Source of the DNA: Escherichia coli
GTDB taxonomy: Bacteria; Pseudomonadota; Gammaproteobacteria; Enterobacterales; Enterobacteriaceae
DNA length: 64,000 nucleotides
NCBI RefSeq assembly: GCF_011045215.1
Contig: NZ_CP049201.1
Reading direction: 5' to 3' (one strand)
Position 1 is the stretch's first letter. The number at the start of each line of letters is the position of its first letter. The notes below the pieces were generated by a model. It did no database searches, was not told where the DNA came from, and saw only the letters and a list, made by a program, of their open reading frames with translations. Positions 10,888 to 59,993 of the stretch are shown piece after piece. The position numbers and the translations under genes are program-made.

Positions 10888-12428
10888 AAATCCGTTCGCA
10901 AGTCGGCATGGTGCTTAATCTCGATAAATGTATCGGCTGCCATACCTGTTCGGTGACCTGTAAAAACGTCTGGACCGGACGCGAAGGCATGGAGTACGCA
11001 TGGTTTAACAACGTCGAAACCAAACCGGGCATTGGTTATCCGAAAAACTGGGAAGATCAGGAAGAGTGGCAAGGCGGCTGGGTGCGTGATGTGAATGGCA
11101 AGATACGCCCGCGTCTGGGCAACAAGATGGGCGTAATAACCAAAATCTTCGCCAACCCGGTGGTGCCGCAGATTGATGATTACTACGAACCTTTCACCTT
11201 CGACTACGAACATTTGCATAGCGCACCGGAAGGCAAACATATTCCTACTGCTCGCCCGCGTTCACTGATTGACGGCAAACGGATGGACAAAGTGATCTGG
11301 GGGCCAAACTGGGAAGAACTGCTGGGCGGTGAGTTCGAAAAACGTGCCCGCGACCGCAACTTCGAGGCCATGCAAAAGGAGATGTACGGGCAGTTTGAAA
11401 ACACCTTCATGATGTACCTGCCGCGCCTGTGCGAACACTGCCTCAATCCCAGCTGCGTGGCGACCTGCCCAAGCGGCGCTATCTACAAACGCGAAGAAGA
11501 CGGCATTGTGCTGATTGATCAGGATAAATGCCGTGGCTGGCGTTTGTGCATAAGCGGTTGTCCGTACAAAAAAATCTACTTCAACTGGAAAAGCGGCAAG
11601 TCAGAAAAATGCATCTTCTGTTACCCACGAATTGAGTCCGGTCAACCGACCGTGTGCTCAGAAACCTGCGTGGGTCGCATCCGGTATCTGGGCGTGCTGC
11701 TTTACGACGCCGACCGCATCGAGGAAGCGGCGAGCACCGAGCGCGAAGTTGACCTCTATGAACGCCAGTGCGAAGTGTTCCTCGATCCACACGATCCCTC
11801 AGTGATCGAGGAAGCCCTGAAACAAGGTATTCCACAAAATGTGATTGACGCTGCCCAGCGTTCGCCAGTCTACAAAATGGCGATGGACTGGAAACTGGCA
11901 CTACCGTTGCACCCTGAATACCGCACCCTGCCGATGGTCTGGTACGTTCCTCCGCTGTCACCGATTCAGTCCTACGCAGATGCGGGCGGTTTGCCGAAAA
12001 GCGAAGGCGTGCTGCCCGCCATCGAAAGCCTGCGTATTCCGGTGCAATATCTCGCCAATATGTTGAGTGCCGGCGATACCGGTCCGGTACTGCGGGCGCT
12101 GAAACGGATGATGGCGATGCGCCACTATATGCGTTCACAAACCGTGGAAGGCGTTACTGATACTCGTGCCATCGACGAAGTAGGCCTGAGCGTCGCCCAG
12201 GTCGAAGAGATGTATCGCTATCTCGCCATTGCCAACTATGAAGATCGTTTTGTTATCCCGACCAGCCATCGGGAAATGGCGGGCGATGCCTTCGCAGAAC
12301 GCAACGGCTGCGGTTTTACCTTTGGCGACGGTTGCCACGGTTCGGACAGTAAATTCAACCTGTTCAACAGTAGCCGTATCGATGCCATCAACATCACCGA
12401 AGTGCGCGACAAAGCGGAGGGCGAATAA
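10884..12428 (+). CDS. narY: Nitrate reductase 2 beta subunit NarY (Fe-S)
   Basis: 514 aa with ferredoxin-type Cys clusters (CIGCHTC...C); start overlaps narZ stop. Confidence 0.93.
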   Translation: MKIRSQVGMVLNLDKCIGCHTCSVTCKNVWTGREGMEYAWFNNVETKPGIGYPKNWEDQEEWQGGWVRDVNGKIRPRLGNKMGVITKIFANPVVPQIDDYYEPFTFDYEHLHSAPEGKHIPTARPRSLIDGKRMDKVIWGPNWEELLGGEFEKRARDRNFEAMQKEMYGQFENTFMMYLPRLCEHCLNPSCVATCPSGAIYKREEDGIVLIDQDKCRGWRLCISGCPYKKIYFNWKSGKSEKCIFCYPRIESGQPTVCSETCVGRIRYLGVLLYDADRIEEAASTEREVDLYERQCEVFLDPHDPSVIEEALKQGIPQNVIDAAQRSPVYKMAMDWKLALPLHPEYRTLPMVWYVPPLSPIQSYADAGGLPKSEGVLPAIESLRIPVQYLANMLSAGDTGPVLRALKRMMAMRHYMRSQTVEGVTDTRAIDEVGLSVAQVEEMYRYLAIANYEDRFVIPTSHREMAGDAFAERNGCGFTFGDGCHGSDSKFNLFNSSRIDAINITEVRDKAEGE

Positions 12429-13123
12429 TGCAGATCCTCAAAGTGATCGGCCTGTTGATGGAGTATCCGGACGAGCTGTTGTGGGAATGCAAGGAGGACG
12501 CGCTGGCGTTGATCCGCCGCGACGCGCCGATGCTTACGGATTTCACCCACAACCTGCTTAACGCGCCGCTGCTGGATAAACAGGCCGAATGGTGCGAAGT
12601 GTTTGACCGCGGGCGCACTACGTCGCTGCTGCTGTTCGAACATGTTCATGCCGAGTCCCGCGATCGCGGCCAGGCAATGGTGGACCTGCTGGCGGAGTAT
12701 GAAAAGGTCGGCCTGCAGCTGGATTGTCGGGAACTGCCCGATTATCTACCGCTGTATCTGGAGTATTTAAGCATACTGCCTGACGATCAGGCGAAAGAAG
12801 GATTGCTCAATGTTGCGCCGATCCTCGCCCTGCTTGGCGGTCGCTTAAAACAACGCGAGGCACCGTGGTACGCGTTGTTTGATGCTCTGCTGCAACTGGC
12901 GGGAAGTACACTTTCAAGTGACAGTGTCACAAAACAAGTAAACAGCGAAGAGCGCGATGACACCCGCCAGGCGCTTGATGCAGTGTGGGAAGAGGAACAG
13001 GTGAAGTTTATTGAAGATAACGCCACGGCGTGTGACAGCTCGCCGCTTAATCAATATCAGCGACACTTTAGCCAGGATGTCGCGCCGCAGTATGTCGATA
13101 TCAGTGCGGGAGGTGGGAAATGA
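12428..13123 (+). CDS. narW: Nitrate reductase 2 assembly chaperone NarW
   Basis: 231 aa, [18 protein letters not shown]; position in operon. Confidence 0.9.
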
Positions 13124-13800
13124 TTCAGTATCTGAACGTCTTTTTTTACGATATCTACCCGTACATTTGTGCGACGGTGTTTTTCCTCGGCAGCTGGCTG
13201 CGCTACGACTACGGGCAGTACACCTGGCGCGCCTCCTCAAGTCAAATGCTCGATAAACGCGGGATGGTGATATGGTCGAATCTGTTCCATATTGGCATTT
13301 TGGGGATTTTCTTCGGGCACCTGTTCGGCATGTTAACGCCGCACTGGATGTACGCGTGGTTTTTGCCGGTGGCAGCGAAACAACTAATGGCGATGGTGCT
13401 CGGAGGCATTTGCGGTGTGTTGACGTTGATTGGTGGCGCAGGACTGCTGTGGCGCAGGCTGACAAATCAGCGCGTGCGTGCCACTTCCACTACGCCGGAT
13501 ATCATCATCATGAGCATTTTGCTGGTCCAGTGTCTGTTGGGGCTAAGCACCATACCGTTTTCAGCACAGTATCCTGATGGTAGCGAAATGATGAAGCTGG
13601 TGGGTTGGGCGCAAAGCATTGTCACTTTCCGTGGTGGATCGTCAGAGATGCTTAACGGTGTAGCGTTCGTTTTCCGCCTGCATCTGGTGTTGGGAATGAC
13701 CATCTTCCTGCTCTTCCCGTTCACTAGACTGGTGCATGTGTGGAGCGCGCCGTTTGAGTACTTTACTCGTCGGTATCAGATTGTGCGTTCGCGGCGATAA
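13120..13800 (+). CDS. narV: Nitrate reductase 2 gamma subunit NarV (cytochrome b)
   Basis: 226 aa membrane protein, [15 protein letters not shown]; overlaps narW stop. Confidence 0.9.
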
Positions 13801-13879
13801 TTTTCACCCTGGCCGGATAGCCCTTCGCTCTCCGGCCACTTGCAGGCTATGATAGTTCTCCAGTCACAGGAGAACGTTA

Positions 13880-14773
13880 ATGAAACCGCAGGTTTACCAC
13901 GTCGATGCTTTTACCTCTCAACCATTTCGCGGCAATTCTGCCGGTGTTGTTTTCCCCGCCGATAATCTTAGCGAAGCGCAAATGCAGCTTATCGCCCGCG
14001 AATTAGGTCATTCGGAAACTGCTTTTCTGCTGCACAGCGACGACGGCGATGTGCGCATCCGCTACTTTACGCCAACCGTTGAAGTGCCAATTTGTGGTCA
14101 CGCGACAGTAGCTGCGCACTATGTACGTGCGAAGGTGTTAGGTTTAGGAAATTGCACGGTCTGGCAAACATCGCTGGCAGGAAAACATCGCGTGACTATC
14201 GAAAAGCACCACGATGGTTATCGTATTTCGCTGGAACAAGGTACGCCGGGCTTTGAGCCACCGCTGGAAGGTGAAACACGTGCGGCGATTATCAACGCGC
14301 TTCATCTCACTGAGGACGATATTCTGCCAGGCTTGCCAATTCAGGTGGCAACAACAGGACACTCAAAAGTGATGATCCCACTGAAACCGGAAGTGGATAT
14401 CGACGCCCTTTCGCCTGACCTTAATGCGCTGACCGCTATCAGCAAACAGATTGGCTGCAATGGTTTCTTCCCGTTCCAGATCCGCCCAGGCAAAAACGAA
14501 ACCGATGGTCGCATGTTCTCGCCTGCGATTGGTATTGTGGAAGATCCGGTGACTGGCAATGCCAATGGCCCGATGGGTGCATGGTTGGTACATCACAACG
14601 TATTGCCCCACGATGGCAAGGTGCTGCGTGTTAAAGGCCATCAGGGGCGCGCATTGGGGCGTGACGGCGTGATTGAAGTGACGGTGACAATTCGTGATAA
14701 CCAACCGGAAAAAGTCACCATTTCTGGCGCGGCGGTGATTTTGTTTCATGCCGAATGGGCAATTAAACTCTGA
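13880..14773 (+). CDS. yddE: PhzF-family isomerase-like protein YddE
   Basis: 297 aa, MKPQVYHVDAFTSQPFRGNSAGVVF (PhzF-like). Confidence 0.85.
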   Translation: MKPQVYHVDAFTSQPFRGNSAGVVFPADNLSEAQMQLIARELGHSETAFLLHSDDGDVRIRYFTPTVEVPICGHATVAAHYVRAKVLGLGNCTVWQTSLAGKHRVTIEKHHDGYRISLEQGTPGFEPPLEGETRAAIINALHLTEDDILPGLPIQVATTGHSKVMIPLKPEVDIDALSPDLNALTAISKQIGCNGFFPFQIRPGKNETDGRMFSPAIGIVEDPVTGNANGPMGAWLVHHNVLPHDGKVLRVKGHQGRALGRDGVIEVTVTIRDNQPEKVTISGAAVILFHAEWAIKL

Positions 14774-14780
14774 AACCGTT

Positions 14781-14856
14781 GCCTGATGCGCTTCGCTTAT
14801 CAGGTCTACAACCGAGCTAATGTATGCCGGATAAGGCGTTTACGCCGCATCCGGCA
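14781..14856. repeat. REP/BIME element (two REP units) between yddE and nhoA
   Basis: gcctgatgcgcttcgcttatcaggtctaca and gccggataaggcgtttacgccgcatccggca are classic REP palindromes. Confidence 0.75.
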
Positions 14857-14868
14857 ACCTGACATAAA

Positions 14869-15714
14869 TTATTTTCCCGCCTCCGGGTGCGTATCAAACG
14901 CCGCCATCACCAGCGCTAACTCATCCACGGTTAAGCCATGTTTCGCATCATCCACGCCCAGACCAAACTGTTCTTGCATCACAGCATATAACGACGCCAC
15001 ATCCGGTAGATTTCGCTGCTCCACAGCGTGCCCATTTTCATAATGGGTAAAATGAAAATTGGTCAGTGTCAGCTTGCCGCCGTCCGGCAAATGGCGGCAC
15101 ATCAGCAAATGATGGCGAAAATGCGACTGCGGCCAGTGCGCCGACCAGAAATTGCCCATCACATAATCGCTTTGTTGCTGCTCGCAGAGATCAAAACGGT
15201 ACATCGACTGCCAATGCTGATGATGATTAAACTGCAACACCCAATCATCACCCTCCTGCAACAACCGATACTCTCCGTGTGGCGTGGTCTGCACGAGATC
15301 GGGAACTAAACGAATCGGCGCGGTTAGCGTCTGCCCACCGAAACCGACATCAGCAATCCATTTTTCCTCTTCCAGTTCCACCAACAGCAAACGATGGGTG
15401 CGCGGGGGTAATGCTGGCGGATTTGATAACACTACCCGCCCTAACAAGCTGCGAACGTGAAACCCCAGCTCGCGTAACACCCGCTCAAACACGCCATTCT
15501 GCTCAAAACAGTAACCGCCACGACGGGCTATCACGAGTTTCTCTTCCAGCGATTGATCATCAAGCTGCATTTCCCTCGGCAGCAAAACGTCGAGGTTTTC
15601 AAACGGAATGGTGCAATTGTGTTTCAGGTGCAATGCACGAAGCGTATCAATATTGACCGCAGCAGTTCCCGACCAGTTAATACGGGCAAAATAGTGATTC
15701 AGAATGGGCGTCAT
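14869..15714 (-). CDS. nhoA: Arylamine N-acetyltransferase / N-hydroxyarylamine O-acetyltransferase NhoA
   Basis: 281 aa, MTPILNHYFARINWSG...GGYCFEQN (NAT catalytic Cys motif). Confidence 0.9.
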   Translation of the reverse strand: MTPILNHYFARINWSGTAAVNIDTLRALHLKHNCTIPFENLDVLLPREMQLDDQSLEEKLVIARRGGYCFEQNGVFERVLRELGFHVRSLLGRVVLSNPPALPPRTHRLLLVELEEEKWIADVGFGGQTLTAPIRLVPDLVQTTPHGEYRLLQEGDDWVLQFNHHQHWQSMYRFDLCEQQQSDYVMGNFWSAHWPQSHFRHHLLMCRHLPDGGKLTLTNFHFTHYENGHAVEQRNLPDVASLYAVMQEQFGLGVDDAKHGLTVDELALVMAAFDTHPEAGK

Positions 15715-15886
15715 CAGGCGTTTCCCTTAGTGGTTTTCTCAACTTATAACCTGGAATAGACGCCGCACCGGCTATTTTGTGCGATCGCGGACATGCATCA
15801 CGTTCGCAAATCGCCAATCCCGTTAATTTCGTTACTTATTGCGTTACGGACTACGCTTAAAAAAACCTTCTTCGCGAGGCGATACC

Positions 15887-16456
15887 ATGAGCCGATTCAT
15901 CCCCATAGAATTACACCATGCCAGCCGTCTGTTAAATCATGGCCCAACTGTCTTGATCACCAGTTTCGATGAGCAATCCCAGCGGCGTAACATTATGGCT
16001 GCAGCCTGGTCAATGCCGGTGGAGTTTGAACCTCCACGCGTGGCGATTGTGGTAGATAAATCGACATGGACCAGGGAGTTGATTGAACATAACGGTAAAT
16101 TTGGCATCGTTATCCCGGGCGTTGCAGCAACTAACTGGACGTGGGCAGTGGGAAGTGTATCTGGGCGTGAAGAAGATAAATTTAATTGCTACGGCATTCC
16201 GGTGGTGAAAGGTCCGGTGCTTGGTTTGCCACTTGTTGAAGAGAAATGCCTGGCGTGGATGGAGTGCCGCCTGCTACCTGCGACTTCTGCGCAACAAAAA
16301 TACGACACGCTGTTTGGCGAGGTGGTATCAGCAGCGGCAGACGCACGGGTATTTGTCGAAGGCCGCTGGCAGTTTGATGATGATAAGCTCAATACGTTGC
16401 ATCATTTAGGTGCTGGCACGTTTGTTACCAGCGGCAAGCGAGTTACGGCAGGTTAA
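15887..16456 (+). CDS. yddH: Flavin reductase-like protein YddH
   Basis: MSRFIPIELHHASRLLNHGP; ATG at 15887 gives the recalled 189 aa. Confidence 0.8.
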   Translation: MSRFIPIELHHASRLLNHGPTVLITSFDEQSQRRNIMAAAWSMPVEFEPPRVAIVVDKSTWTRELIEHNGKFGIVIPGVAATNWTWAVGSVSGREEDKFNCYGIPVVKGPVLGLPLVEEKCLAWMECRLLPATSAQQKYDTLFGEVVSAAADARVFVEGRWQFDDDKLNTLHHLGAGTFVTSGKRVTAG

Positions 16457-16459
16457 GCA

Positions 16460-16687
16460 TTACATGCTGTAACCGGGTTTCTTTATCAAAGCCTCCATTT
16501 GGGGCGCGATTTCGGCATCCCAGATAGCTTGCCAAGATTCTGGTTGAATCTGCTGTAGAGCAATGCTTATCGAAATGTCTTTACTGTTCAGATGGCGAAT
16601 AATAACGTCGGTAATATCTGCAGCAAGTGCTGCTTTTTGTTGTTCGTCCAGTTCACGCGGAAAACATTTAATGTCGATGTGCGGCAT
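16460..16687 (-). CDS. pptA: Tautomerase PptA (4-oxalocrotonate tautomerase family)
   Basis: [33 protein letters not shown]; Pro2 tautomerase signature; ATG at 16685-16687 with an upstream AGGAG. Confidence 0.85.
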
Positions 16688-16978
16688 GATTGTGCTCCTT
16701 TTGAAAGATGTCAGTAAAATTAACACACATTGTGAATGTCGTATGTCCGGTGATGCGTTTTTACGACAATAATGCCTACTTGAAATTGTAGATATTTGCA
16801 CTACACCCTTTTAAATAAAGCACCAACAAATCGTCAACTTGCAGAACATATTCTTCTGCCTACATACCATTAAGAAAACATCAAGTTTCCGACTTGCCAA
16901 TTTATTAATGCCCATTATAGACGCTGAAACAAGCCACGGACAAAGAAGATGCCAAAATTACCGGCGATGCAGAAAAAC

Positions 16979-17350
16979 TCAACGAACCAGGGCAAGATTA
17001 CGAAAGCCCGCTCCCGCAAGGACTGACGCCAGATAGTTTCTGTCCATGGCTGCTTTTCGCATCTTACGTCTTAACCCTGCCTTGAATACCTTATCATTCG
17101 TCAAAATATTAATAGCAATGTGCCGTATCCCTGAAAATAATTCTGCAGCATTTCCTCTTCTTATTTTGCAGTCGTCTTCATTCATTACCACGTCCAGACG
17201 CCAGTGCAGCTTATTCTCCACGTGCCAGTGGTTTCGGATTGCTGTGGCGAACTTCTCTGCGGTTAAATCAGCAGAACTGATATAATATCTGACCGTCATT
17301 TCTGGCTCTTTCTTTTGTTCTGCTATTATTGACCGAAAGGAGACTGCCAC
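16979..17350 (-). mobile_element. Truncated H-repeat-associated (ISAs1-family) transposase remnant, C-terminal 123 aa only
   Basis: [30 protein letters not shown] is the conserved C-terminal DDE region of H-rpt/ISAs1 transposases (K-12 ydcC/yncI lie at the equivalent place). The N-terminal two-thirds is missing. Confidence 0.7.
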
Positions 17351-17667
17351 GCATAATTTCTTCAGTCCTTTCCATTCAAACGTGAAATCAATAAGTTCAT
17401 CAGGGACATCGCAAACAATATGAAGACGGATTTCTTCTCTGCCGTGACTAAAATGCGAATTATTTAGTACAAAAAAAGCGGCGCACCTTGTTCTTTCCCA
17501 GATTCCTAATATGGCAACTTTAAGTTATCGCCGTCTATACTTATAGAAATTTCATCAGGGGTGACGTAAATAGAATTTTTTTCATCCTCAATTGCCCATA
17601 ACTGATTAATAAAAAAGTATTTTTTTCATCTAATAAAAAATTATCACATGTAGTAAAATTATTAATA

Positions 17668-18327
17668 TCAAAAAAAATCATCAGCACAATTAATTTTTAA
17701 ATTTAAAAAATAAAGAAAAATATTATTGATTGATTTGAGTGTAAACCACTTGTCATTAACAAATTTATAGCCAGATGATTTTATAAAATAATAATTATCT
17801 CCTGGTATAAAGGCATACATATCATTTAAGGTTATACTCAACAAAAAACTACGACCTGGTTTAATAGTATTCCACCGTTCAGGATTCGTATTAATTTCAA
17901 AAGGACATGAACCACCTAAGTAGTCCAACGTGATATTCCCAGAGTTGATTCTGAATGGTTTTTTGCATATCGCATCATATTCATCTCCTTTTCCATCTTT
18001 TACTTTCATAGGTAGATAATATTTAGAAAAAAAATACGTGGTAGAGCTATTGTTAGTAAAGGTTATGTTAGCAAAAATCCTGTTATTTTTTTTACTCATA
18101 GCTAATTGAGCATTGACATCCGCTATATAATTTATATGATTACATTTTTTCTTACACTCATCATAATTTTCGATAGGATAAATTAATGGCCTTCCTTTGA
18201 TATCTCTCTCAAGCCCAAACCCGTATTTTTTTATTAAAACCATTTCATCCGCAGTCGATTGAAAGGAATAGAAAAATATAATATTTACGATTGTCATTAT
18301 TATGATTTTTTTTATAGCTTGCAGCAT
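17668..18327 (-). CDS. Hypothetical exported protein (219 aa) with N-terminal signal peptide; AT-rich island ORF
   Basis: Hydrophobic N-terminus IIIMTIVNIIFFYSFQSTADE; strongly AT-rich; no family recognised. Confidence 0.45.
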   Translation of the reverse strand: MLQAIKKIIIMTIVNIIFFYSFQSTADEMVLIKKYGFGLERDIKGRPLIYPIENYDECKKKCNHINYIADVNAQLAMSKKNNRIFANITFTNNSSTTYFFSKYYLPMKVKDGKGDEYDAICKKPFRINSGNITLDYLGGSCPFEINTNPERWNTIKPGRSFLLSITLNDMYAFIPGDNYYFIKSSGYKFVNDKWFTLKSINNIFLYFLNLKINCADDFF

Positions 18328-18350
18328 TAATATATTTCTCGACTTATTAG

Positions 18351-18653
18351 TTAATGGAGAAGTGCTTTTTCTAATTCCGCTATTTTTTTCTTAACTGAAT
18401 TGCTTAATATTTCATCATTAATCGAGTCTATCTCACTTTCAATTAATCTTATTTCAAAATATCTTTCTATGTTATATGCATTCTCAAATATTTGATCTTT
18501 TTGTTTAGAGATCAGTTTAGTTGCAATACGGATATGTTCGTCATATGAAACTTCATCCTCTTTGCACGTTGAATATTTATCAGTAGTTGTATAATTCTGT
18601 GACCACATACCACCTTTTTTATTATCCCCATAATACCACTGAATATGAGACAT
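18351..18653 (-). CDS. Hypothetical small protein (100 aa), candidate immunity or accessory protein
   Basis: ATG at 18651-18653 with GGAAAGGA upstream; AT-rich; inside the VgrG island. Confidence 0.4.
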   Translation of the reverse strand: MSHIQWYYGDNKKGGMWSQNYTTTDKYSTCKEDEVSYDEHIRIATKLISKQKDQIFENAYNIERYFEIRLIESEIDSINDEILSNSVKKKIAELEKALLH

Positions 18654-18691
18654 TTCATGACATAAAGTAGCAACATGAGAATCCTTTCCCG

Positions 18692-19141
18692 TTACTGGAT
18701 TTTTTTGCCATCTCTATACTCAAATTTTGCGCCTATGTTAATTATATAGGGCATATCCTTACTTGGGCTGACGAATGCTGCAAATTCATTACAACCTGTA
18801 TAATTTATAAAACTGCTCATTGTTAAATCATTAGCTATAATCATTAATCTTCTCACACCATCCATCATAAGAAATCTAGCATTCATGCGCCTAACTGTAT
18901 TATGTCCATATTTTCTTATATTAACTTCCTTATTTCCTTTAACACCAAAGATCTTACTGAAATCATATTCCTCCTGTGCTCCCCATCTCAAAAGATCATC
19001 TGCTCTTTTTATCAAAACCAACTTTTGTGCCTTACGAACCTTATCAATCATTATTTTAAAATGATCAGTTATTTTTTGCTCTTTCACACATTCTTCTGGC
19101 TCTGGCTTTGGTTGTCCAGAAGTTTGATTATTATCGTCCAT
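18692..19141 (-). CDS. Hypothetical protein (149 aa from the ATG with an RBS; the longest ORF runs to 19198)
   Basis: GGAAGGA then ATG (MDDNNQTSGQ...) at 19141; AT-rich; no recognisable domain. Confidence 0.4.
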   Translation of the reverse strand: MDDNNQTSGQPKPEPEECVKEQKITDHFKIMIDKVRKAQKLVLIKRADDLLRWGAQEEYDFSKIFGVKGNKEVNIRKYGHNTVRRMNARFLMMDGVRRLMIIANDLTMSSFINYTGCNEFAAFVSPSKDMPYIINIGAKFEYRDGKKIQ

Positions 19142-19327
19142 AGTGTCCTTCCATTGAGAGAAAATCATCATTCGCAAATAGCAACTAAAAAGCAGCATTA
19201 CTTGACCTTTCCCTGCATAACAATATTTATAAAATAATACGTTTTATGATCTCACCTTGGGCTCCCAACAAGATAATTTCAGTTTTAAAGACTTTCACGA
19301 AAAAATATAGAAATACCTCACCACCCT

Positions 19328-19618
19328 TCACTTACCAATTAATCTCACAGGAAATCCAACTTCCTTACCACAAATACAATCCCAAGTAACATTTCCCAAA
19401 ATTTTTGATACTTTAGGCTGCAATGGCATTATTGACATTATAAATTTATCAAGTTCTTCGCTATATTTAATTCCCTTTATATTTCTTATTATTGATATTC
19501 TAGCAGTAAAGATAGCCGTCTCTCCATCTACACTAAAAGTGTAATTACAATTTTTTGTAATCTCATCAAATTCAACCGATAACAAATCAATATTATGGTT
19601 TGTAAACACTATGCCCAT
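19328..19618 (-). CDS. Putative cognate immunity protein (96 aa) for the upstream T6SS toxin
   Basis: Start overlaps the toxin stop by 26 nt, a typical toxin-immunity arrangement; small and AT-rich. Confidence 0.5.
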   Translation of the reverse strand: MGIVFTNHNIDLLSVEFDEITKNCNYTFSVDGETAIFTARISIIRNIKGIKYSEELDKFIMSIMPLQPKVSKILGNVTWDCICGKEVGFPVRLIGK

Positions 19619-21032
19619 TCCATACCTCCTTAAATTCCTGTTCAGTCATCAGATATCGACTCCCTTGATATGGATCATATATTATCACATTCCCAGCATC
19701 ATCAACACCCTTAACAAGTACCCAATGTCCTACTTTACTTCCAGAATCCCACATCATTGCTCCCCATGAACCAGTATTACTGAGGGCATATAAACTAGAT
19801 TCGCTCACTGCATTCCCTTCCCAGCCGACATCAAATTTATTAAGCTTGTTTGCCAGCGACGTCATAGATGTTAATTCTGTTCCAATTACATTTTGCGTGA
19901 CAAAAATATACCTATCCCTAAGCAACATTTCCCCACAGGCCGCTCCACAGCCTGTTAAAGTCAATTGCTTTATTACATTTGAATCTAAAACCTCATCAAA
20001 TACTGTCCAATTGCCACCAGCACCACCTTCTAAAACTACCGGCTCTACAAATACTTTCCCAGAGATATTTTCTTCTGGTATTTTTGCGGGTATCATAAAG
20101 CCCCATAAAAAGCTGGAAAAATGCTCCAGAGCAATCTGATCACCATTATTTGCATCCATTATCATTTTTTTAAGTGCATCCCATGCTTGCCCATTTATCA
20201 ATGAATCACTAATATTAAATAAAGCCTGTTCTTTTTCGTTTAAATTTATATTTGCCTGTTCACATAACCCATCTTCGCCTATCGGGCAAGCAACCGTTGC
20301 CGTTGCCGTATCTAACAGAGCATCGAATGTAACTAAGGCTAAATCCGCCACACCATGTAAAGTGGTGATTGCTCCATTCCCCATTTGAGTAAGTGTGTTC
20401 TCTCCAAACCATTCTCTAATTTGAGATTTATCTCCTTCAATACCATTCCTGAGAGATTCTCTGATATTCTTTATTGAAAAAAACTCCCCCCATGATTGGT
20501 CAGGATCTTTTATTTGGAATAAATCATTTTTAACCTCAGGTGAAATATCTCCGTCAAAAATATTACCAACAGAGAGGAGATCCTTCAGAAGCAGTAAATC
20601 GTGTATTACTTCAGCAGTCCTTTCATAATTAAAACTTCTATCAATGACAGAAATCATTGGTGATTTTATTTTGGTATATAATTTACCAAGGCAGTTATGG
20701 TTATTAATCCCAACAACTGAACCATGATAAGCAACAGGTTTCCCTTCTATTGTTACAGTCGGACTTCCCGTTAAAATAACACAGTCACCCGTTCCTTGAG
20801 ATGTACCGGATATGACACCTTTACCGGCATTACTTTGAGTTCCAGCAATCACTGAACCAACATTTAAAGCTCTGCATCCACGCGCCCATACCGTTGAACT
20901 GTACTGTCTTTCACTATCTAAAGTCTGGTAACTGTCAAAAGGAACCTTGTAACCTCCTACTTCACATACATCTGGTGAAGTACACACGACTCTAAATCTA
21001 GATTCACCATCCCCGATATGATAGTTACCCAT
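19593..21032 (-). CDS. T6SS polymorphic toxin: N-terminal PAAR-like (DUF4150-type) domain, C-terminal papain-like cysteine peptidase (C39-like) domain; 479 aa
   Basis: N-terminus VCTSPDVCEVGG...GSPTVTIEGKPVAYHGS resembles PAAR-like spike-capping domains. C-terminus has a CGAAC motif at residues 362-366 and GHWVLV...D...IYDP at 436-453, a Cys/His/Asp arrangement like peptidase C39 folds. Follows vgrG and the DUF2169-like gene. Confidence 0.6.
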   Translation of the reverse strand: MGNYHIGDGESRFRVVCTSPDVCEVGGYKVPFDSYQTLDSERQYSSTVWARGCRALNVGSVIAGTQSNAGKGVISGTSQGTGDCVILTGSPTVTIEGKPVAYHGSVVGINNHNCLGKLYTKIKSPMISVIDRSFNYERTAEVIHDLLLLKDLLSVGNIFDGDISPEVKNDLFQIKDPDQSWGEFFSIKNIRESLRNGIEGDKSQIREWFGENTLTQMGNGAITTLHGVADLALVTFDALLDTATATVACPIGEDGLCEQANINLNEKEQALFNISDSLINGQAWDALKKMIMDANNGDQIALEHFSSFLWGFMIPAKIPEENISGKVFVEPVVLEGGAGGNWTVFDEVLDSNVIKQLTLTGCGAACGEMLLRDRYIFVTQNVIGTELTSMTSLANKLNKFDVGWEGNAVSESSLYALSNTGSWGAMMWDSGSKVGHWVLVKGVDDAGNVIIYDPYQGSRYLMTEQEFKEVWNGHSVYKP

Positions 21033-22071
21033 AATATTTTTTCCCTATACATTCAGGAATAATACAACTCAGCACTCCTTCTTTCATTCCAAAAAAATCA
21101 GGTATTGTTAATCTCCAGGTAAGGTATATTTCCTGTCGACTTAAATCGATAACCATTGTATCCGCAACAGGTAAGAACATATGTGATGTATTATGCTTGG
21201 TTTTTAATATAAGTACAGGTCGTATACCTGGCAATTTTGTCTTAACAACCTGTTCAAATTTAAAAAAACCTTCAAGAGAGATGTTTTCATCGCCAGAGAG
21301 AAACCCCGTGTATATCATATCCGGATGAGCACTATTGTAGAACCGCTCATCAAAATCATCCGGCAAATAGGGATAGCGCTTTTCACGCCATACTTCATTG
21401 TAGGTTCCTGCATACTGGAGGCGACTTTTCCACCATCGAGATACAGGGCCAACACCTTGAAAAAAGTCAGATTCCCCATTAAAAATGGTAGCGTTTTCTG
21501 ACAAAGCAGAGCTGGTTATTTGTGGGAGTTTATATTGACAACTTGTATTAAGTTGGGAAATATCAGGATAATATCCACAACCTACAGGGTTTGCTGAAAA
21601 AACCAATTTCTCCATACCATCTGGTTGCCAAATACCACCGTAAGCAAGCTCATAGCGTAGAGGAATATTAATAATTTTATCTGGTAAGCTCATCTGCCAA
21701 CGATTTCGCTCATATTGTAAGTAGCGGACACCAGATAAACTCAGTTCTTTAGAAAAACTATTAACCCTCACACAAGCCTTCCACTGAGACTTATCCCCTG
21801 AAGGGGCATGAGCACTACCTGTCACGTGAATATCTGTATTTCTTTTACAAAGAACTAAGTCTGTTTCAGATTTTAGACTACTTGTTTCAGGCTCCCCATA
21901 GTATTCATCAGACATGGACAATTCTCTTTGAAATTCAGCAAGATCAGCATAAAATCCATTTTTAATTCGCAATGACATTTTAATAGCAATAACATCAAAC
22001 AAAAGACCATAACGACCATATTTTTCAAATGACAACAAAGGAAATGGCGTGTTATTTTTCATTTCTATCAT
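21025..22071 (-). CDS. DUF2169-like T6SS adaptor/chaperone protein (348 aa)
   Basis: Called mainly by context: lies between vgrG and a PAAR-like toxin, and its stop overlaps the toxin start by 8 nt (translational coupling). Confidence 0.5.
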   Translation of the reverse strand: MIEMKNNTPFPLLSFEKYGRYGLLFDVIAIKMSLRIKNGFYADLAEFQRELSMSDEYYGEPETSSLKSETDLVLCKRNTDIHVTGSAHAPSGDKSQWKACVRVNSFSKELSLSGVRYLQYERNRWQMSLPDKIINIPLRYELAYGGIWQPDGMEKLVFSANPVGCGYYPDISQLNTSCQYKLPQITSSALSENATIFNGESDFFQGVGPVSRWWKSRLQYAGTYNEVWREKRYPYLPDDFDERFYNSAHPDMIYTGFLSGDENISLEGFFKFEQVVKTKLPGIRPVLILKTKHNTSHMFLPVADTMVIDLSRQEIYLTWRLTIPDFFGMKEGVLSCIIPECIGKKYYG

Positions 22072-22177
22072 GCTTATTGATCCCTGAATAAGTCATGCTA
22101 TGATTAATTTAAACAATCACAAATGGTGATTCACAGGCGTATAAAGCAAATACAATCACCATGTTTTATATTCTGCA

Positions 22178-24160
22178 CTATCCGTTCAGATGAATATCTT
22201 TTCCTTTAATATCTACAGGACCGGTAGCCTCAAATAGAAACTCCGTCCCCCGTATTATTATCTTTCCTGTTTTCTCCAGTTTTATGGAACAAGTCCCGCT
22301 CTCTCCCTGCCCACAAATTAGCTCAATACTGTCCCCAGATATGATTTTTGTACCATGCTCAACTTTCAGTTCGTAATTATCACCTATTTTAATACTCTGT
22401 TTTTTGACGACTTCTTCGGTATCAGTTCCCGTCACCTTGCTTGTCTGGTTGTTATTCACAACCTTGTGCCGGTCATTTTTTATCGTGAGATGCTGATCGT
22501 TCGCTACCGTCACTTTCTGGTCATGACCACCTTCCTTTTTGCTCCCCACATTCACCGTCTGGCCCTTCACCACCGTTATCTTCTGGTTGTTACCGATGGT
22601 TTCCGTATGGTCATGTTTCACATCCGTTGTCCGGTCGTTGAGCACCTCCGTATCCATGTTCTTCTGGGCATGGATATACACCTGCTCATTACTGGTGGCG
22701 TCTTCAAACCGTAGCTCGTTAAATCCGCTTCCTTTATAGGTTTTTGACCGGATGGTCATCTGCGTCTTCGTTCCCGGCAGGTCGCCCGGGGAGCGGTTAT
22801 CTTCATGGTAGGTCCGTCCCGTGACGATGGGCTGGTCCGGGTCGCCGTTCAGGAAGTCAACAATCACCTCCTGGCCCACCCGCGGTATCGCCAGGTTACC
22901 GAACCCCGGCCCCGCCCACGCCTGCGATACCCGCACCCAGCATGAACTCGCCTCCGTCATCCCGTGATAACGGTCCCAGTGGAACTTCACCCGTACCCGG
23001 CCATGTTCGTCGCAGAATATCTCCTCACCCTTCGGCCCGGTCACAATGGCACTCTGCGGCCCGTCCACCTTCGGTTTGCTTTGCAGCCGTGGACGCCACG
23101 TCCGGTCTGCCGGTATCACCTCTAACTGATTTCCCAGCGTGGTTCCCCTCCCCTGGCTGCCGTGCAGCGCCTGCGGCTGGCTTCCTGACAGTATGCTCTG
23201 TACCACCTGCCATTCACGGTTCAGCATCTTCTGCGGATGCCCCGTCAGCGTAAACCGCGTTCCCGGCCACAGCTTCGGTGAATTACTCTGCCCTGTGGCC
23301 TTTTCCGCATCACTGCGCAGGCTGTCCATCTGGTACAGCGTGAAATCCTTGCCGTGCTGCTCATCCTTGAACCTTCCCGGATAATCAAATATCTCGTACT
23401 GCGCCAGCTGTCCGTTCAGGTTCTCACCCTGCTGCTCATACATCCCCGGCCAGTCCGGCACCTTAAACGTGTAATCCTGACTCTGCACCGACGACGGGCG
23501 GACATGCGCCTCATAACGGAACGTACTGAGACACTCCGTCTCCGCTCCTGCCGATGTGTCCGGGTTAAACGGAAGCTCTCCCGCCTGTGACAGCCCCGCC
23601 ACATCGTCGCACAGCGTCAGCTTCTGCTCCGGGCTGTCCGCCGCAAACCGCTCAAAGAAGAAAATCCCCTCCTCCGCCCACAGCCGCGCCAGAAACGCCA
23701 GGTCGCTCTCTCCGTACTGGACACAGAACTCCCGCGCCGGATGGTCTTCATAAAACAGCGGCGTCCACTCCGTGACGCCGTTCTCATTCAGTAACGTGGC
23801 CGATATCGTCCGGATATCCTGCTGCTGGAAGATACGGAAGTTCTGCCGCAGCCCGCACCGCCATAACGGCGGCTCAATACGCAGGTGATAACGCATCTGC
23901 CAGCCATTGTTCTCCTGCATGCCAAAACCCGCCACCACGCCGGTGACATAACGCAGCGGGATGACGCCCTGCCAGATGGTCAGCGTCGCCTTCTTCTCCA
24001 GCAGCATCTCCGCCGTCTGCATAAAAGAGTCGCTGGCAACATCCACACTCATCACAAACGGATATGACTGGTTCTGGATTAACCTGAAGCTCACCACTGC
24101 AAAGGTGTCCGGCTCCTGGCCGTCAACCTCCAGCGTAAAGCGCAGACCTTTTAAGGACAT
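22178..24160 (-). CDS. vgrG: Type VI secretion spike protein VgrG (660 aa)
   Basis: N-terminus MSLKGLRFTLEVDGQEPDTFAVVSFRLIQ and central gp27/gp5-like regions (IFDYPGRF, HWDRYHG, VGQEVIVDFLNGDPDQPIVTGRTYH) are hallmark VgrG motifs. The C-terminal third is AT-rich and repetitive. Confidence 0.88.
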   Translation of the reverse strand: MSLKGLRFTLEVDGQEPDTFAVVSFRLIQNQSYPFVMSVDVASDSFMQTAEMLLEKKATLTIWQGVIPLRYVTGVVAGFGMQENNGWQMRYHLRIEPPLWRCGLRQNFRIFQQQDIRTISATLLNENGVTEWTPLFYEDHPAREFCVQYGESDLAFLARLWAEEGIFFFERFAADSPEQKLTLCDDVAGLSQAGELPFNPDTSAGAETECLSTFRYEAHVRPSSVQSQDYTFKVPDWPGMYEQQGENLNGQLAQYEIFDYPGRFKDEQHGKDFTLYQMDSLRSDAEKATGQSNSPKLWPGTRFTLTGHPQKMLNREWQVVQSILSGSQPQALHGSQGRGTTLGNQLEVIPADRTWRPRLQSKPKVDGPQSAIVTGPKGEEIFCDEHGRVRVKFHWDRYHGMTEASSCWVRVSQAWAGPGFGNLAIPRVGQEVIVDFLNGDPDQPIVTGRTYHEDNRSPGDLPGTKTQMTIRSKTYKGSGFNELRFEDATSNEQVYIHAQKNMDTEVLNDRTTDVKHDHTETIGNNQKITVVKGQTVNVGSKKEGGHDQKVTVANDQHLTIKNDRHKVVNNNQTSKVTGTDTEEVVKKQSIKIGDNYELKVEHGTKIISGDSIELICGQGESGTCSIKLEKTGKIIIRGTEFLFEATGPVDIKGKDIHLNG

Positions 24161-24178
24161 AAATACCTCTCAGACATA

Positions 24179-24463
24179 TCAGCCTATATTTACCGTACCG
24201 CCACCAATGACCACGCCGCCGCAGTCAACAGCATCACCGCTTCTGGCGGCGGGCAGGCCGTCAATAAAGACGGTTGAAGAACCTCTGGCGATTTTACGGG
24301 GATGAGGGGGATGCTTCGGTTTAGCATGCGGCGTCAGCGGATCTCCCTGACGGGCTGCGGGGAGACCATCGATAAAAACGGTGGATGACCCGGCGGTGAT
24401 GACGGTCTCGTAATAACCGTCGTGCTGAGTGCCTTTGTCGGTGAGTTTGGCTGCTAAAGGCAT
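24179..24463 (-). CDS. PAAR-repeat protein (T6SS spike tip), 94 aa
   Basis: Two copies of SSTVFIDGLPAAR(Q/S)GD plus an N-terminal AAKLTD motif; 18 nt upstream of vgrG on the same strand. Confidence 0.75.
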   Translation of the reverse strand: MPLAAKLTDKGTQHDGYYETVITAGSSTVFIDGLPAARQGDPLTPHAKPKHPPHPRKIARGSSTVFIDGLPAARSGDAVDCGGVVIGGGTVNIG

Positions 24464-25002: not shown

Positions 25003-25620
25003 TTAAATAATGACATTCCTTTTTAATACTTCTTGTAATTTCGGTAACTGACATACTGCATCAGCAATCGCACTGATATTCGTGGCATTATCCTGAAACC
25101 ATTCATGCCCAGGCCCCCATGTGCGCATAGTGCAAAGATAACAGTCCACCAGCGTTAGTTGCTCACCAAACGCATAAGGTTCAGCGGTCAATTGTGAATT
25201 CAGCCAGATATAAAGCGATTTACGATATTCAATAACATTCTTCTTTAACTGTTCAGGTGCGTCAGATGCCCAACGCTCAGGGTAATCGGCGAAAGTGAAT
25301 GTTGGATAGACATTAGCAACCAGCCAGACCAATAGCCGTTGAAACTGCTGACGTTCGGCGCGCCCAACCGGTGGCGCAAGGTCCGGGCGACGATCGAGAA
25401 CCATCAATGCAATCGCCGCTGTCTCCGTCATAATCTCGTCATTTTCCAGAGCCAGTGTCGGAACCTGACACAACGGGTTCAGGGTTTTCAATAACTCGCG
25501 TGAAGTTCCCTCGTGGTCAAAACCACTGACATCAACGAACTGATAAGGAATATCAGCTAGTGTTAGCATCAGCTCACTGATTGTAGAGCCCCATCCGGGT
25601 ACGCCATACACCTTAATCAT
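25003..25620 (-). CDS. yncG: Glutathione S-transferase homolog YncG
   Basis: 205 aa, MIKVYGVPGWGSTISELMLTLADIPYQFVDV (GST N-terminal fold). Confidence 0.85.
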   Translation of the reverse strand: MIKVYGVPGWGSTISELMLTLADIPYQFVDVSGFDHEGTSRELLKTLNPLCQVPTLALENDEIMTETAAIALMVLDRRPDLAPPVGRAERQQFQRLLVWLVANVYPTFTFADYPERWASDAPEQLKKNVIEYRKSLYIWLNSQLTAEPYAFGEQLTLVDCYLCTMRTWGPGHEWFQDNATNISAIADAVCQLPKLQEVLKRNVII

Positions 25621-33987: not shown

Positions 33988-34221
33988 TCACAGGATGGTG
34001 CCGCCTTTGGTTAACTGTTCGTGGCGCGCTTCCGTATCTTCTTTATGCTTGCGACCGTGATGAGCAATAGCGGTGCGCAAACGCTGCTGCTGGGTGTAGC
34101 GATCTTCCCGACTTAACTCCGCGTCATCGCTCAGGGCGATTAATAATTCGTTCATATGGGCAATGACGCTCTCTTCAATCGCGGCATCCACACGCGCGAT
34201 GACTTCATCCAGATGCGACAT
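33988..34221 (-). CDS. ydcY: Small protein YdcY (77 aa)
   Basis: MSHLDEVIARVDAAIEESVIAHMNELL; length and position. Confidence 0.75.
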   Translation of the reverse strand: MSHLDEVIARVDAAIEESVIAHMNELLIALSDDAELSREDRYTQQQRLRTAIAHHGRKHKEDTEARHEQLTKGGTIL

Positions 34222-34306
34222 ACTTTCTCCTTAGCCACTTGTGAAATTTATCGATTCATCCAAATGATATAAGTCTGCGTGGTGCCGTCAAGCCAGTGAG
34301 TAAGAT

Positions 34307-34480
34307 TTAAAACAGTGAAAACAACAGCGCCACCGGGAAACTCATCGGCCATGTTGCCCCCACCAGAAAGGCGCTTAAGAAACGGATGCGTTTCTTATCG
34401 TGAGAAAGAAACCAAGTGATAAGAAATGAGATTGCTGCCATAACCGCATAAAAAACAAGCATGTGTTGATAGAGAGACAT
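34307..34480 (-). CDS. ortT: Orphan membrane toxin OrtT (YdcX), 57 aa
   Basis: MSLYQHMLVFYAVMAAISFLITWFLSHDKKRIRF... small hydrophobic peptide. Confidence 0.75.
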   Translation of the reverse strand: MSLYQHMLVFYAVMAAISFLITWFLSHDKKRIRFLSAFLVGATWPMSFPVALLFSLF

Positions 34481-34674
34481 GTACGGGCGTCCAGCCAGAT
34501 GAATAAAACGCGCGCAAATATGCGTCATTTTTTGATGTGCATCAAGTTTTTTAACCGGTTTGAGAAAAAAACATCAAACAGCAACTTGCCCTTATCCATC
34601 TTCAGAATGAGTATTATTGCGGATTTTCTTAACCCGTACTATACACATAGGGGCAATGATAAAAGGTGGCAAAA

Positions 34675-34770
34675 ATGAATGTTTCCAGTAGAACTGTAGT
34701 ACTGATAAATGTCTTTGCTGCTGTTGGTTTGTTTACTCTTATCTCTATGAGATTTGGCTGGTTTATTTGA
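34675..34770 (+). CDS. yncL: Small membrane protein YncL (31 aa)
   Basis: MNVSSRTVVLINVFAAVGLFTLISMRFGWFI with AAAGGTGG RBS upstream. Confidence 0.7.
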   Translation: MNVSSRTVVLINVFAAVGLFTLISMRFGWFI

Positions 34771-35171
34771 TGTAGTGATTTTGCACGCAGCACGTACTGT
34801 CAGAGAAATCAGTGCTCTGACAGTACGCAAGATCTTCTCATACTCTCCAGGTTTACAACATTATCCTTAATATTTACTTCTTTTTGCTGGTATCTACATT
34901 GAAATGAGTAGAAAACATCCCCCTACTGTCGTCTATACAAACAGCTTACTGATTCAAAGGGAATCTTGTTTTCACATTTTTCTATCATGAATACTTTATA
35001 CGCGCGGGAGTCTATAAATGCTTTATACTTTCAAGGAATAACGTAAATATAAAAAGATGGCGTGAAGTATATGCATGGCAGGATGTTTGCAACCTCCTTG
35101 ATGACGCTGCCCCATTGAAATTGCAAACCCCGCCCTGGTTATCTTGCCCATTTATCATGCAAAACAGATAA

Positions 35172-35981
35172 TTATAGGCCTCTGAATACCTCAGAAAGAT
35201 TGAATTTTTTATAGTCCCTCTCTTGAATATTTCCATTTGAAATCAATCGATTCATCTCTTCAACAAAATAATTTATATCATCACACTTGTTATTATCCGG
35301 AAGATCTGAGTAGTTATAATTCCACCATTTTATTCTCAACAGTTCATCAATAACATTTGAATCAAACCTAAATCTGATTATTTTTGCAGGAACTCCTGCA
35401 ACTATGGCATATGGGGGCACATCTTTGGTAACAACGGAATTGGCAGCAATAACAGCACCATCACCTATTACGATGCCACCTTTCAATACAACATCATTTC
35501 CTATCCAGACATCATTTCCTATAATCGGATTTTCAGGTTTGGTAATGAATGGTTTCAATGTCCAGCTACGTTCAAACTCACTCATAGCAAACTTATCAAA
35601 TTCACCGTTATAAGTCATCATGTGAGTAGTAAAACGATTCAAAGGATGATTTCCACCCATTATTTTTACATTTGATGCAATACTACAAAATCGACCTATA
35701 CGTATATTCCCTGAAAAATGACAGGTCGGAAATGAAAAAGCGCCGACACTGGAGAAATTTTTTACAGGCATTGTTGAATATTCTTCAGCAATAACATTAT
35801 CTTCAATTGTTATCTTGTCACCTTTTGAGAAAAGAAATAAATTCCTTTCTTTATAAGACTTCTTCCCCTTATGATTTAAAAAGATTTTATTATCCATACA
35901 AAACTCAAAGTGTTTTTTCGTCCATCTGAAGGTAAGGGTTTTATTTTTATCTTCCGTGAATTTGTACAATTGAACTTTCAT
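35172..35981 (-). CDS. Hexapeptide-repeat xenobiotic acetyltransferase (XAT family; resembles Vat streptogramin A acetyltransferases / CatB); start uncertain (alternative ATGs would give about 241 or 199 aa)
   Basis: C-terminal block IGNDVWIGNDVVLKGGIVIGDGAVIAANSVVTKDVPPYAIVAGVPAKIIRFRFDSNVIDELLRIKWWNY closely parallels the recalled VatD/SatA core; NHPLNRFTTH His region also present; AT-rich gene. Confidence 0.7.
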   Translation of the reverse strand: MKVQLYKFTEDKNKTLTFRWTKKHFEFCMDNKIFLNHKGKKSYKERNLFLFSKGDKITIEDNVIAEEYSTMPVKNFSSVGAFSFPTCHFSGNIRIGRFCSIASNVKIMGGNHPLNRFTTHMMTYNGEFDKFAMSEFERSWTLKPFITKPENPIIGNDVWIGNDVVLKGGIVIGDGAVIAANSVVTKDVPPYAIVAGVPAKIIRFRFDSNVIDELLRIKWWNYNYSDLPDNNKCDDINYFVEEMNRLISNGNIQERDYKKFNLSEVFRGL

Positions 35982-36190
35982 TGTTAATACTTCTACTTAT
36001 AAATTATTAGTTTAATAACAATACTCTAAAGCCTTATGCTAATCAACTGTGACAGGATGAAAAATCGCCATCAAACATTTAGTCTAATTTTTACGCTAGT
36101 TATTAATGTAATCATTCTAATACTTAACCGCCATTAAACTCAGAACCTAAAACGATAGTGGCCGTCCTATAACAGCCACTAACATCTAAC

Positions 36191-58975: not shown

Positions 58976-59261
58976 TACCGTTGTCTCTCGTCCAGGTTTA
59001 CTCCTGATAGAAAGTCATCGGCACTTGACGGTAATTACTTATGACCAAATACCTCTTTGCGTCACATTTTTACAACAATTATTGCAGAGAAAATTAATGC
59101 TATTGGAATGAAGAGAGTAACGAATGGCTAAACCGAATGACGAAAAATTCTGGAAAACAGCACGCAATTTCGTGAAGTGATTATTTTCGTCCCTAAGGAA
59201 ACCTCATAGGATGCCTGCGGGTGCCTGAGACTTTCTGTTTTCAGGCTAACCGGGAATCAGA

Positions 59262-59306
59262 AAGACGAAGGCCCCGACCGATATTTCTATCAACCGAGGC
59301 CAACGA

Positions 59307-59317
<11 letters not shown>
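59262..59317 (-). ncRNA. sokB: Antisense RNA SokB (antitoxin of the hokB type I TA locus), approximate
   Basis: Placed by the canonical hok/sok layout: antisense to the mokB leader and start. Coordinates from recalled K-12 spacing, not an independent motif. Confidence 0.45.
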
Positions 59318-59514
<197 letters not shown>

Positions 59515-59929: not shown

Positions 59930-59993
59930 CTTCCGATGTAGACCCGTATTCTTCGCCTGTACCACGGGTCGGTTTTAGTACAGGCGTTTTCTT
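59930..59993 (+). ncRNA. rydC: Hfq-dependent small RNA RydC
   Basis: cttccgatgtagacccgtattcttcgcctgtaccacgggtcggttttagtacaggcgttttctt matches the recalled RydC sequence; convergent with cybB as in K-12. Confidence 0.7.

Follow-up and report, generated by a model that had tools for sequence, protein, structure and literature searches.

In Vibrio cholerae, a variable C-terminus of about 60 amino acids in VgrG-2, a type VI secretion system (T6SS) spike protein, is reckoned part of the effector module, and such modules have brought in with them a stretch of conserved vgrG, of varying length, while the older genes were pushed downstream (PMC5361080). A step in GC content inside V. cholerae tap-1 has been used to argue that the 3' end of that gene co-segregates with the effector (PMC4557670). 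In Agrobacterium, according to PMC6971182 (citing Bondage 2016), the variable VgrG C-terminus sets effector specificity and co-varies with DUF2169 and DUF4150. Formation of a spike from VgrG and PIPY requires DUF2169 (Sachar 2025, PMC11883445), and Cpe1, a T6SS toxin known from Escherichia coli ATCC 11775, cuts GyrB and ParE (PMC12136450). Here we describe a vgrG gene that is followed by a DUF2169 gene and a cpe1/cpi1 pair in a 64-kb stretch of E. coli DNA (64,000 nucleotides of contig NZ_CP049201.1, assembly GCF_011045215.1; hereafter the window). Our analysis indicates that this vgrG is very probably a mosaic made by homologous recombination, whose tail was imported together with the chaperone, toxin, and immunity genes. 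Coordinates are positions within the window; vgrG lies on the minus strand, and its nucleotides (nt) and codons are counted from its start (Table 1).

The locus resembles the V. cholerae modules described for vgrG-2, vgrG-3, and the tap-1 chimeras (Kirchberger 2017, PMC5361080; Unterweger 2015, PMC4557670): a conserved 5' carrier is joined to a variable 3' end that co-segregates with effector and immunity genes, GC content shifts within the carrier gene at the junction, displaced genes lie downstream, and the joining would proceed by homologous recombination without a fixed site. The parts differ, however; here it is a VgrG tip with a DUF2169/PIPY pair, whereas there it is a DUF4123 adaptor or a VgrG-fused toxin, and here the exchange would also have taken place between two chromosomal loci of a single species, the main T6SS cluster and an island next to yncG. 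A second parallel is offered by VgrG1 and VgrG2 of A. tumefaciens and the modules of strain 1D1609. There the paralogues diverge at the C-terminus but otherwise share more than 90% identity (PMC6971182), vgrG is followed by DUF2169 and then a DUF4150 effector, and identical C-termini accompany near-identical DUF2169 and DUF4150 sequences despite differing toxin domains, as in E. coli A30 below. The specificity of the C-terminus is experimental there, whereas here we infer it; no compositional step was reported for Agrobacterium.

The three genes also follow the minimal order of the VgrG-DUF2169-PIPY synteny called type B, with an N-terminal DUF4150 cone that lacks PAAR motifs (PMC11883445), but our locus carries K-V-P-F in place of P(I/V)P(Y/F) and an extra canonical PAAR gene upstream of vgrG. 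The cargo is that of ATCC 11775, since both the toxin domain and the immunity protein match Cpe1-Cpi1 (PMC12136450; PDB 9L5U); unlike the usual pair, which sits near yafV, this one lies in the yncG island behind a different vgrG core. C-terminal toxin displacement in Rhs/CdiA, as described in PMC5361080, likewise combines a constant 5' part, a variable recombined 3' part, and older ends and immunity genes orphaned downstream; there the variable part is the toxin, whereas here it is a structural docking end with separate cargo genes. Module exchange is established in Vibrio and Agrobacterium, so the locus adds no new mechanism, and its cargo has already been characterized. What it offers is a well-resolved E. 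coli case, in which a 3.4-kb payload block would have moved between two chromosomal loci by way of a conserved vgrG core arm.

To locate the join we searched 5426 complete E. coli genomes with vgrG by megablast. The core family is present in 700 of them, as 1593 copies in total and with a median of two copies per genome, and its matches have one of three end points: nt 1983, about nt 1664, or nt 1474. In the main T6SS cluster of MS 200-1, the order is hcp-vgrG-DUF2169-cpe1-cpi1, adjoining yafV. When our vgrG is compared with this allele, 109 of the 111 differences lie at or before nt 1595 and only two beyond it (Fisher p = 1e-8). On the 3' side of nt 1595, identity to main-cluster alleles is 99-100% through DUF2169, cpe1, and cpi1 to window position 19184, and blastn against three main-cluster copies (L002, L005, and L006) shows homology ending at 19184 in all of them. 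The alleles of MS8320 and FDAARGOS_1254 likewise have their last core-type mismatch at nt 1595, followed by the next mismatch at nt 1704; to judge from these alignments, the recent junction therefore lies within nt 1596-1704 (window 22565-22457).

Alleles with other cargo also break in this part of the gene. The CFT073 yncG-locus alleles, whose cargo is DUF4123 or M35, are about 96% identical in the core, with homology running out at nt 1524 and nt 1664; more generally, E. coli VgrGs with other cargo have 94-98% core identity and no similarity beyond nt 1524-1664. Against the yncG-locus alleles of A30 and O145, the core is 96-100% identical in most 100-nt windows and 89-94% identical over nt 1101-1400. 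The crossover point thus varies by allele: nt 1474 (a deletion), 1524, 1595-1704, or 1664, with a further mosaic boundary at nt 400 in the protein P0100. Homologous recombination without a fixed site would produce such a spread. Chi sites are absent from vgrG and are ruled out as the origin of its junction, and we found neither internal repeats nor a second vgrG fragment within the window. In the allele encoding P0100 (L017), which has the same tail, the first 400 nt are 65-80% identical to our vgrG and the remainder about 97-100%, so that the 5' end of vgrG appears to be mosaic too.

The flanks point to the piece that moved. Upstream of vgrG come the PAAR gene and then chromosomal yncG, ansP, and yncE; this left flank, from yncG through the PAAR gene into the core, is collinear with A30 and O145 at 97.5-98.5% and also with 2018-05-2CC. 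The right flank (19184-16988) is collinear with O145 and 2018-05-2CC, at an identity of about 98.9%, and partly with CFT073. Because both flanks match the yncG-locus lineage, the tail and cassette would be the incoming piece, and the simplest reading is that they were copied into the resident yncG-locus vgrG, displacing an M35 module. Elsewhere, the Cpe1/Cpi1 pair lies beside the main T6SS cluster near yafV in almost all genomes. A query running from yncG to the cassette reached at least 80% coverage in only 6 of the 5426 genomes. In just two of these, A30 and 2018-05-2CC, the match begins at yncG; in the remaining four it begins at the PAAR gene, and the one of them that we inspected adjoins yafV in the main cluster. 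Each relative carries its own variant of the island: IS600 within vgrG in 2018-05-2CC, a deletion of 22687-20094 in O145, and another toxin domain in A30.

The opposite history, in which the tail and cassette are the older residents and the GC-rich core was overwritten by gene conversion from a paralogous vgrG, would draw on the concerted evolution of cores. Indeed, over nt 1-1000 the cores of different loci share 94-98% identity, and they have variable mosaic boundaries, which points to frequent gene conversion among paralogues, and GC content at third codon positions (GC3) is higher in the vgrG core, at 0.75, than in any other T6SS gene compared (0.45-0.64). We nevertheless consider this history unlikely. 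Both flanks of the block match other yncG-locus islands that hold different cargo between them, whereas the block itself is almost indistinguishable from the main-cluster copies (99-100%), and the combination of tail and DUF2169 occurs at the yncG locus in just two of the 5426 genomes, A30 and 2018-05-2CC. In addition, the decayed M35 gene downstream resembles displaced earlier cargo. When translations are compared, the same gene is intact in 2018-05-2CC, where it encodes 263 amino acids and is annotated 'peptidase M35'; its product, an M35-like zinc peptidase, is a putative earlier T6SS effector of this locus.

The composition of vgrG also changes along the gene. GC content is 0.56-0.65 over 22800-24100 and 0.37-0.41 over 22100-22500 in 200-nt windows; it starts to fall at about 22750, and the optimal division into two segments on all bases is at nt 1413 (window 22747), with GC of 0.60 before and 0.44 after. 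This first fall is an amino-acid effect and not a mark of foreign DNA. Between codons 461 and 577, the share of Lys, Asn, Thr, Ile, Asp, and Glu climbs from 28% to 50%, and the drop in window 22430-22750 is confined to the first and second codon positions, because the gp5 beta-helix encoded there, which is conserved in every allele, is rich in Lys, Asn, Thr, and Asp. GC3 behaves differently: it is 0.754 over codons 1-460, 0.667 over codons 461-532 (not significantly different from the core, p = 0.15), and 0.61-0.68 over codons 533-577, and then 0.337 over codons 578-660, near the values of the cassette genes (DUF2169, 0.281; cpe1, 0.25-0.30; cpi1, 0.227). The GC3 change-point falls at codon 577, with support at 575-579 (window 22423-22435), and its likelihood ratio beats those of all 1000 permutations (p < 0.001). 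AT-rich cargo is general at the yncG locus as well, with GC3 of 0.24-0.44 in the CFT073 cargo genes compared to 0.45-0.64 in the structural T6SS genes of MS 200-1.

A first-pass annotation of this DNA, made from the letters alone, had noticed that the 3' part of vgrG differs in composition and had proposed that the C-terminus was recombined, together with its cassette, onto a resident VgrG core. The proposal is borne out by the GC3 step, by breakpoints located in other E. coli alleles at nt 1524, 1595-1704, and 1664, and by the decoupling of core and tail described below. The break itself is real, GC3 going from about 0.7 to 0.34, but it had been misplaced: the whole interval 22178-22700 was taken to be distinct, whereas only the roughly 250 nt at 22178-22429 share the cassette's composition, and the actual junction is 130-370 nt further 3' than proposed. 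The Lys/Asn/Thr richness singled out there is present, but it begins at about residue 461, in a stretch conserved among alleles. The lesson for genome scans is that a junction placed by total GC is off by several hundred bases, since AT-coded amino acids abound in the conserved beta-helix itself, whereas GC3 and allele comparison put it in the right place.

Might the AT-richness of the 3' part be nothing but the composition of a Lys/Asn/Thr/Ile-rich beta-helix, with no recombination at all? For window 22430-22750 the description is accurate, but as an account of the gene it is very improbable, and for codons 578-660 amino-acid composition alone is refuted by the GC3 step and the homology breakpoints: GC3, which is independent of amino-acid content, drops by half at codon 577, the identity to other alleles at the nucleotide level shifts abruptly at nt 1595, and the alleles with other cargo have unrelated tails. 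An assembly artefact that merged reads of two vgrG paralogues is scarcely credible, even though conserved cores in two copies are a classic cause of mis-assembly and the exact island is intact in none of the complete genomes, because the same join recurs at the same locus in the independent A30, 2018-05-2CC (interrupted by IS600), and O145 (a deletion derivative), collinear at 97.5-99%, and because the 660-codon frame is intact and the flanks are continuous on both sides.

The tail is also linked to its cassette and decoupled from the core. The 320-nt tail is found in 300 of the 5426 genomes, always in a single copy and at 99% identity or more, and a query spanning the junction of tail and DUF2169 is likewise found in 300 genomes at a coverage of at least 80%, which indicates that the tail borders DUF2169 in all 300; an identical tail with unrelated cargo was not found among them. 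We then compared cores and tails across 120 VgrG homologues. E. coli VgrGs with 87-98% core identity bear at least six unrelated tails, which are 13-36% identical over residues 578-660, and a tail of 98-100% identity, found at the yafV locus as well as the yncG locus, sits on cores that share 87%, 95%, and about 98% identity with this one. A second E. coli tail type, in a VgrG of 654 amino acids at the yncG locus, is followed by a DUF2169 gene of its own, divergent and frameshifted, and a PAAR-like effector. In A30, the tail, DUF2169, and the PAAR-like domain are kept and the toxin domain differs past window position 20081.

Other genera extend this pattern. VgrGs of 662-666 amino acids from Citrobacter, Hafnia, Salmonella, Enterobacter, Yokenella, Kluyvera, and Lelliottia have 70-76% identity in the core and 42-59% in the tail, which ends in a common motif, G-x-x-F-x-F-x-A-x-G-P-x-x-I-K-G-K-D-V-x-I-N. 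Residues 533-577, approximately, are 58-80% conserved across genera and have core-like codon usage. All four of the contexts examined in other genera read vgrG-DUF2169-PAAR-like(-Rhs), three of them directly after hcp. On these comparisons, the core would track the species and the tail the adaptor-tip class (DUF2169/PIPY), not the toxin. A word-indexed protein search with the tail alone returned nine matches, all fragments, and is uninformative on other taxa. An exhaustive search of representative proteins with the 115-residue tail gave 47 matches, of which the full-length ones, at 25-44% identity, all fall at the very C-terminal end of proteins as long as a VgrG; the representative set is clustered at 50% identity, which hides tail variants. 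Of three contexts of distant matches, two were on contigs too short to read and one continued with DUF6484, the type A synteny.

What is exchanged appears to be a piece of the spike itself. Pfam places the gp27-like hub (Phage_GPD, PF05954) at residues 34-328 (E = 1.2e-74), the OB fold (Phage_base_V) at 385-451, and the beta-helix (Gp5_trimer_C) at 468-542. VgrG scores 601.3 bits against TIGR03361 (cut-off 186.35) over residues 8-519, and residue 519 is where the matches to the NCBIfam VgrG models end; P. aeruginosa VgrG1 (4MTK) matches it with E = 2e-87. The tail in isolation still scores as Gp5_trimer_C in Pfam over residues 543-604 (E = 3.7e-10, above the cut-off), and it aligns collinearly, if weakly (E of about 0.02), with residues 504-602 of P. 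aeruginosa VgrG1. A length of 660 residues is usual for a VgrG, P. aeruginosa VgrG1 having 643. Given this normal length, the Gp5_trimer_C match, and the collinear alignment, the tail reads as the distal gp5-like needle and blunt end of an ordinary VgrG, and the earlier label of a C-terminal extension does not fit it. An AlphaFold2 (AF2) monomer model built on a 48-sequence alignment has a mean predicted local distance difference test (pLDDT) score of 64.9, with residues 364-549 (OB fold and helix) below 50 and the last 90 residues at 68-83, in three short strands; it is too poor in the helix to be informative.

The cargo downstream is, on sequence grounds, the characterized Cpe1/Cpi1 pair. 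The DUF2169 gene encodes a single-domain protein and starts 106 nt downstream of vgrG, and cpe1 overlaps its end. In Cpe1, Pfam finds Tox-PAAR-like (PF13665) at residues 15-115 (46.6 bits, cut-off 31) and Peptidase_C39 at residues 352-474; residues 337-479 match PDB 9L5U chain A with E = 2.6e-94, and RefSeq names the orthologues cpe1 and cpi1. Residues 26-33 of the cone read G-G-Y-K-V-P-F-D, in which V-P-F fits P(I/V)P(Y/F) and Lys replaces the first Pro.

Taken together, these findings allow us to propose how the locus arose and how it may work. A single block, from vgrG nt 1596 to about 145 nt past cpi1 (window 22565-19184, 3.4 kb), would have been imported in a form that hardly differs from the module that B2-type E. 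coli carry next to their main T6SS cluster. It would comprise the distal VgrG beta-helix and tip, DUF2169 as the chaperone, the protease toxin Cpe1 with its PAAR-like (PIPY) cone, and Cpi1. The left homology arm would be the highly conserved vgrG core, most of which is 94-98% identical between paralogous loci, and the former cargo, the M35-like peptidase module, would have been pushed downstream, where it decayed. An older junction would lie inside the block at codon 577, beyond which codon usage is that of the AT-rich cassette. The swapped tail would correspond to the final third of the gp5-like trimeric needle, along with the blunt end that seats a cone-shaped tip protein; by analogy with other systems, it may offer a docking surface for the PIPY cone of Cpe1, and DUF2169 may keep that cone loadable. 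The T6SS would then fire the loaded spike, the Cpe1 protease domain would cleave GyrB and ParE in the target cell, and Cpi1 would shield the producer.

Several observations weigh against this account. The homology junction (codons 532-568) and the GC3 step (codon 577) fall at different places, so that two events are needed; their separation suggests an older event within the block, in which a DUF2169-type vgrG gained the AT-rich tip together with the cassette. A donor of the AT-rich block did not emerge, as tail protein searches of the representatives gave no close match, and none of the T6SS core genes is found within the 64-kb window, so that a working T6SS is not visible here. Citrobacter and Yokenella tails are 49-53% identical to ours but their DUF2169 and PIPY proteins only about 30%; the co-variation of tail with DUF2169/PIPY thus appears categorical and not proportional, and a quantitative co-variation is rejected. 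That the tail decides which cargo loads, the "cargo-specifying" role given to it by the first-pass annotation, is a suggestion carried over from experiments in other species. The canonical PAAR gene upstream, finally, weakens the case for the tip sequence alone as a specificity code; the binding of PAAR proteins to the spike tip is believed to depend little on sequence.

This gene leaves one vgrG with two alternative caps, the canonical PAAR protein (24179-24463) and the PAAR-like cone of Cpe1 (19593-21032). The upstream protein scores 156.5 bits against the NCBIfam model T6SS_PAAR_dom (cut-off 124). The PAAR-vgrG arrangement is also found in the main T6SS cluster of MS8320, and the gene set is listed in many B2-type genomes; MS 200-1 has hcp-vgrG without PAAR. 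A two-tier code could be imagined, in which residues 533-577 or so would form a class region common to all DUF2169-type spikes, the last 83 would be an allele-specific tip that travels with its own DUF2169/PIPY, and the spike would be capped by either PAAR or PIPY-Cpe1. We regard this as a rather doubtful proposal; if true, the two caps would build into the spike a choice of going unarmed or armed at its tip.

Table 1 Features of the vgrG island and its flanks (window coordinates).
Feature	Coordinates	Strand	Remarks
yncG (glutathione S-transferase family)	25003..25620	minus	Chromosomal left flank; Pfam glutathione S-transferase domains; annotated yncG in the collinear A30, O145, and 2018-05-2CC loci
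Canonical PAAR gene	24179..24463	minus	94 amino acids; directly upstream of vgrG; Pfam PAAR_motif, E = 5e-21
vgrG/tssI	22178..24160	minus	660 amino acids, intact
vgrG core, nt 1-1595 (codons 1-532)	22566..24160	minus	gp27-like hub, OB fold, proximal gp5 beta-helix; yncG-locus lineage; GC3 0.67-0.75
Probable crossover interval of the recent exchange, vgrG nt 1596-1704	22457..22565	minus	Core lineage meets tail and cassette lineage
AT-rich vgrG tip module, codons 578-660 and stop	22178..22429	minus	GC3 0.337, near downstream cassette values
DUF2169 T6SS accessory/chaperone gene	21025..22071	minus	348 amino acids; Pfam DUF2169, E = 1.3e-72; 99% identical to main-cluster copy
cpe1	19593..21032	minus	479 amino acids; N-terminal PAAR-like (DUF4150/PIPY) cone and papain-like cysteine protease toxin
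cpi1 immunity gene	19328..19618	minus	96 amino acids; PDB 9L5U chain C (Cpi1) matches residues 1-96, E = 2.6e-61
Right end of the segment common to main-cluster copies	19184..19327	minus	Homology stops at 19184
M35-like metallopeptidase gene, putative displaced older cargo	18351..19198	minus	Frameshift gives open reading frames of 168 and 100 amino acids, split exactly at the HEMSH motif
219-amino-acid open reading frame of the older M35 module	17668..18327	minus	Putative immunity gene
ISAs1-family transposase remnant closing the island	16988..17449		91-98% identical to ISAs1/ISEc1 annotated in L002, L005, and L006

Further observations concern the cassette and the right end of the island. Two independent rearrangement junctions lie no more than 14 nt apart inside cpe1, at the boundary between the part made up of the PIPY cone and linker and the protease domain: homology to A30 ends at 20081, where its toxin domain has been swapped, and the O145 deletion joins vgrG nt 1474 to 20094. 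This boundary looks like a second module boundary. A Chi site, GCTGGTGG, lies on the coding strand at 20014-20021 in cpe1, about 60 nt downstream of the two junctions, and crossover at the boundary may be Chi-stimulated. To the right of the block, window 17449-18339 shares 98.3% identity with the sequence downstream of CFT073 vgrG2-M35, and the open reading frame of 219 amino acids is possibly the immunity gene of the M35 module. A 51-nt element at 17449-17499 is 84-86% similar to the sequence that directly follows the cpi1 cassette in main-cluster copies, near ISAs1 remnants; it may be a common right-hand boundary of effector modules at both loci.

Elsewhere in the window, Rfam matches at 59219-59370 and 59930-59993 correspond to the sok antitoxin RNA of a hok/sok-type locus and the small RNA RydC, as expected for this region of E. 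coli. Two further stretches, 2001-6000 and 34001-36000, are AT-rich, with GC of 0.36-0.38 compared to a window mean of 0.478, and may be other horizontally acquired segments.

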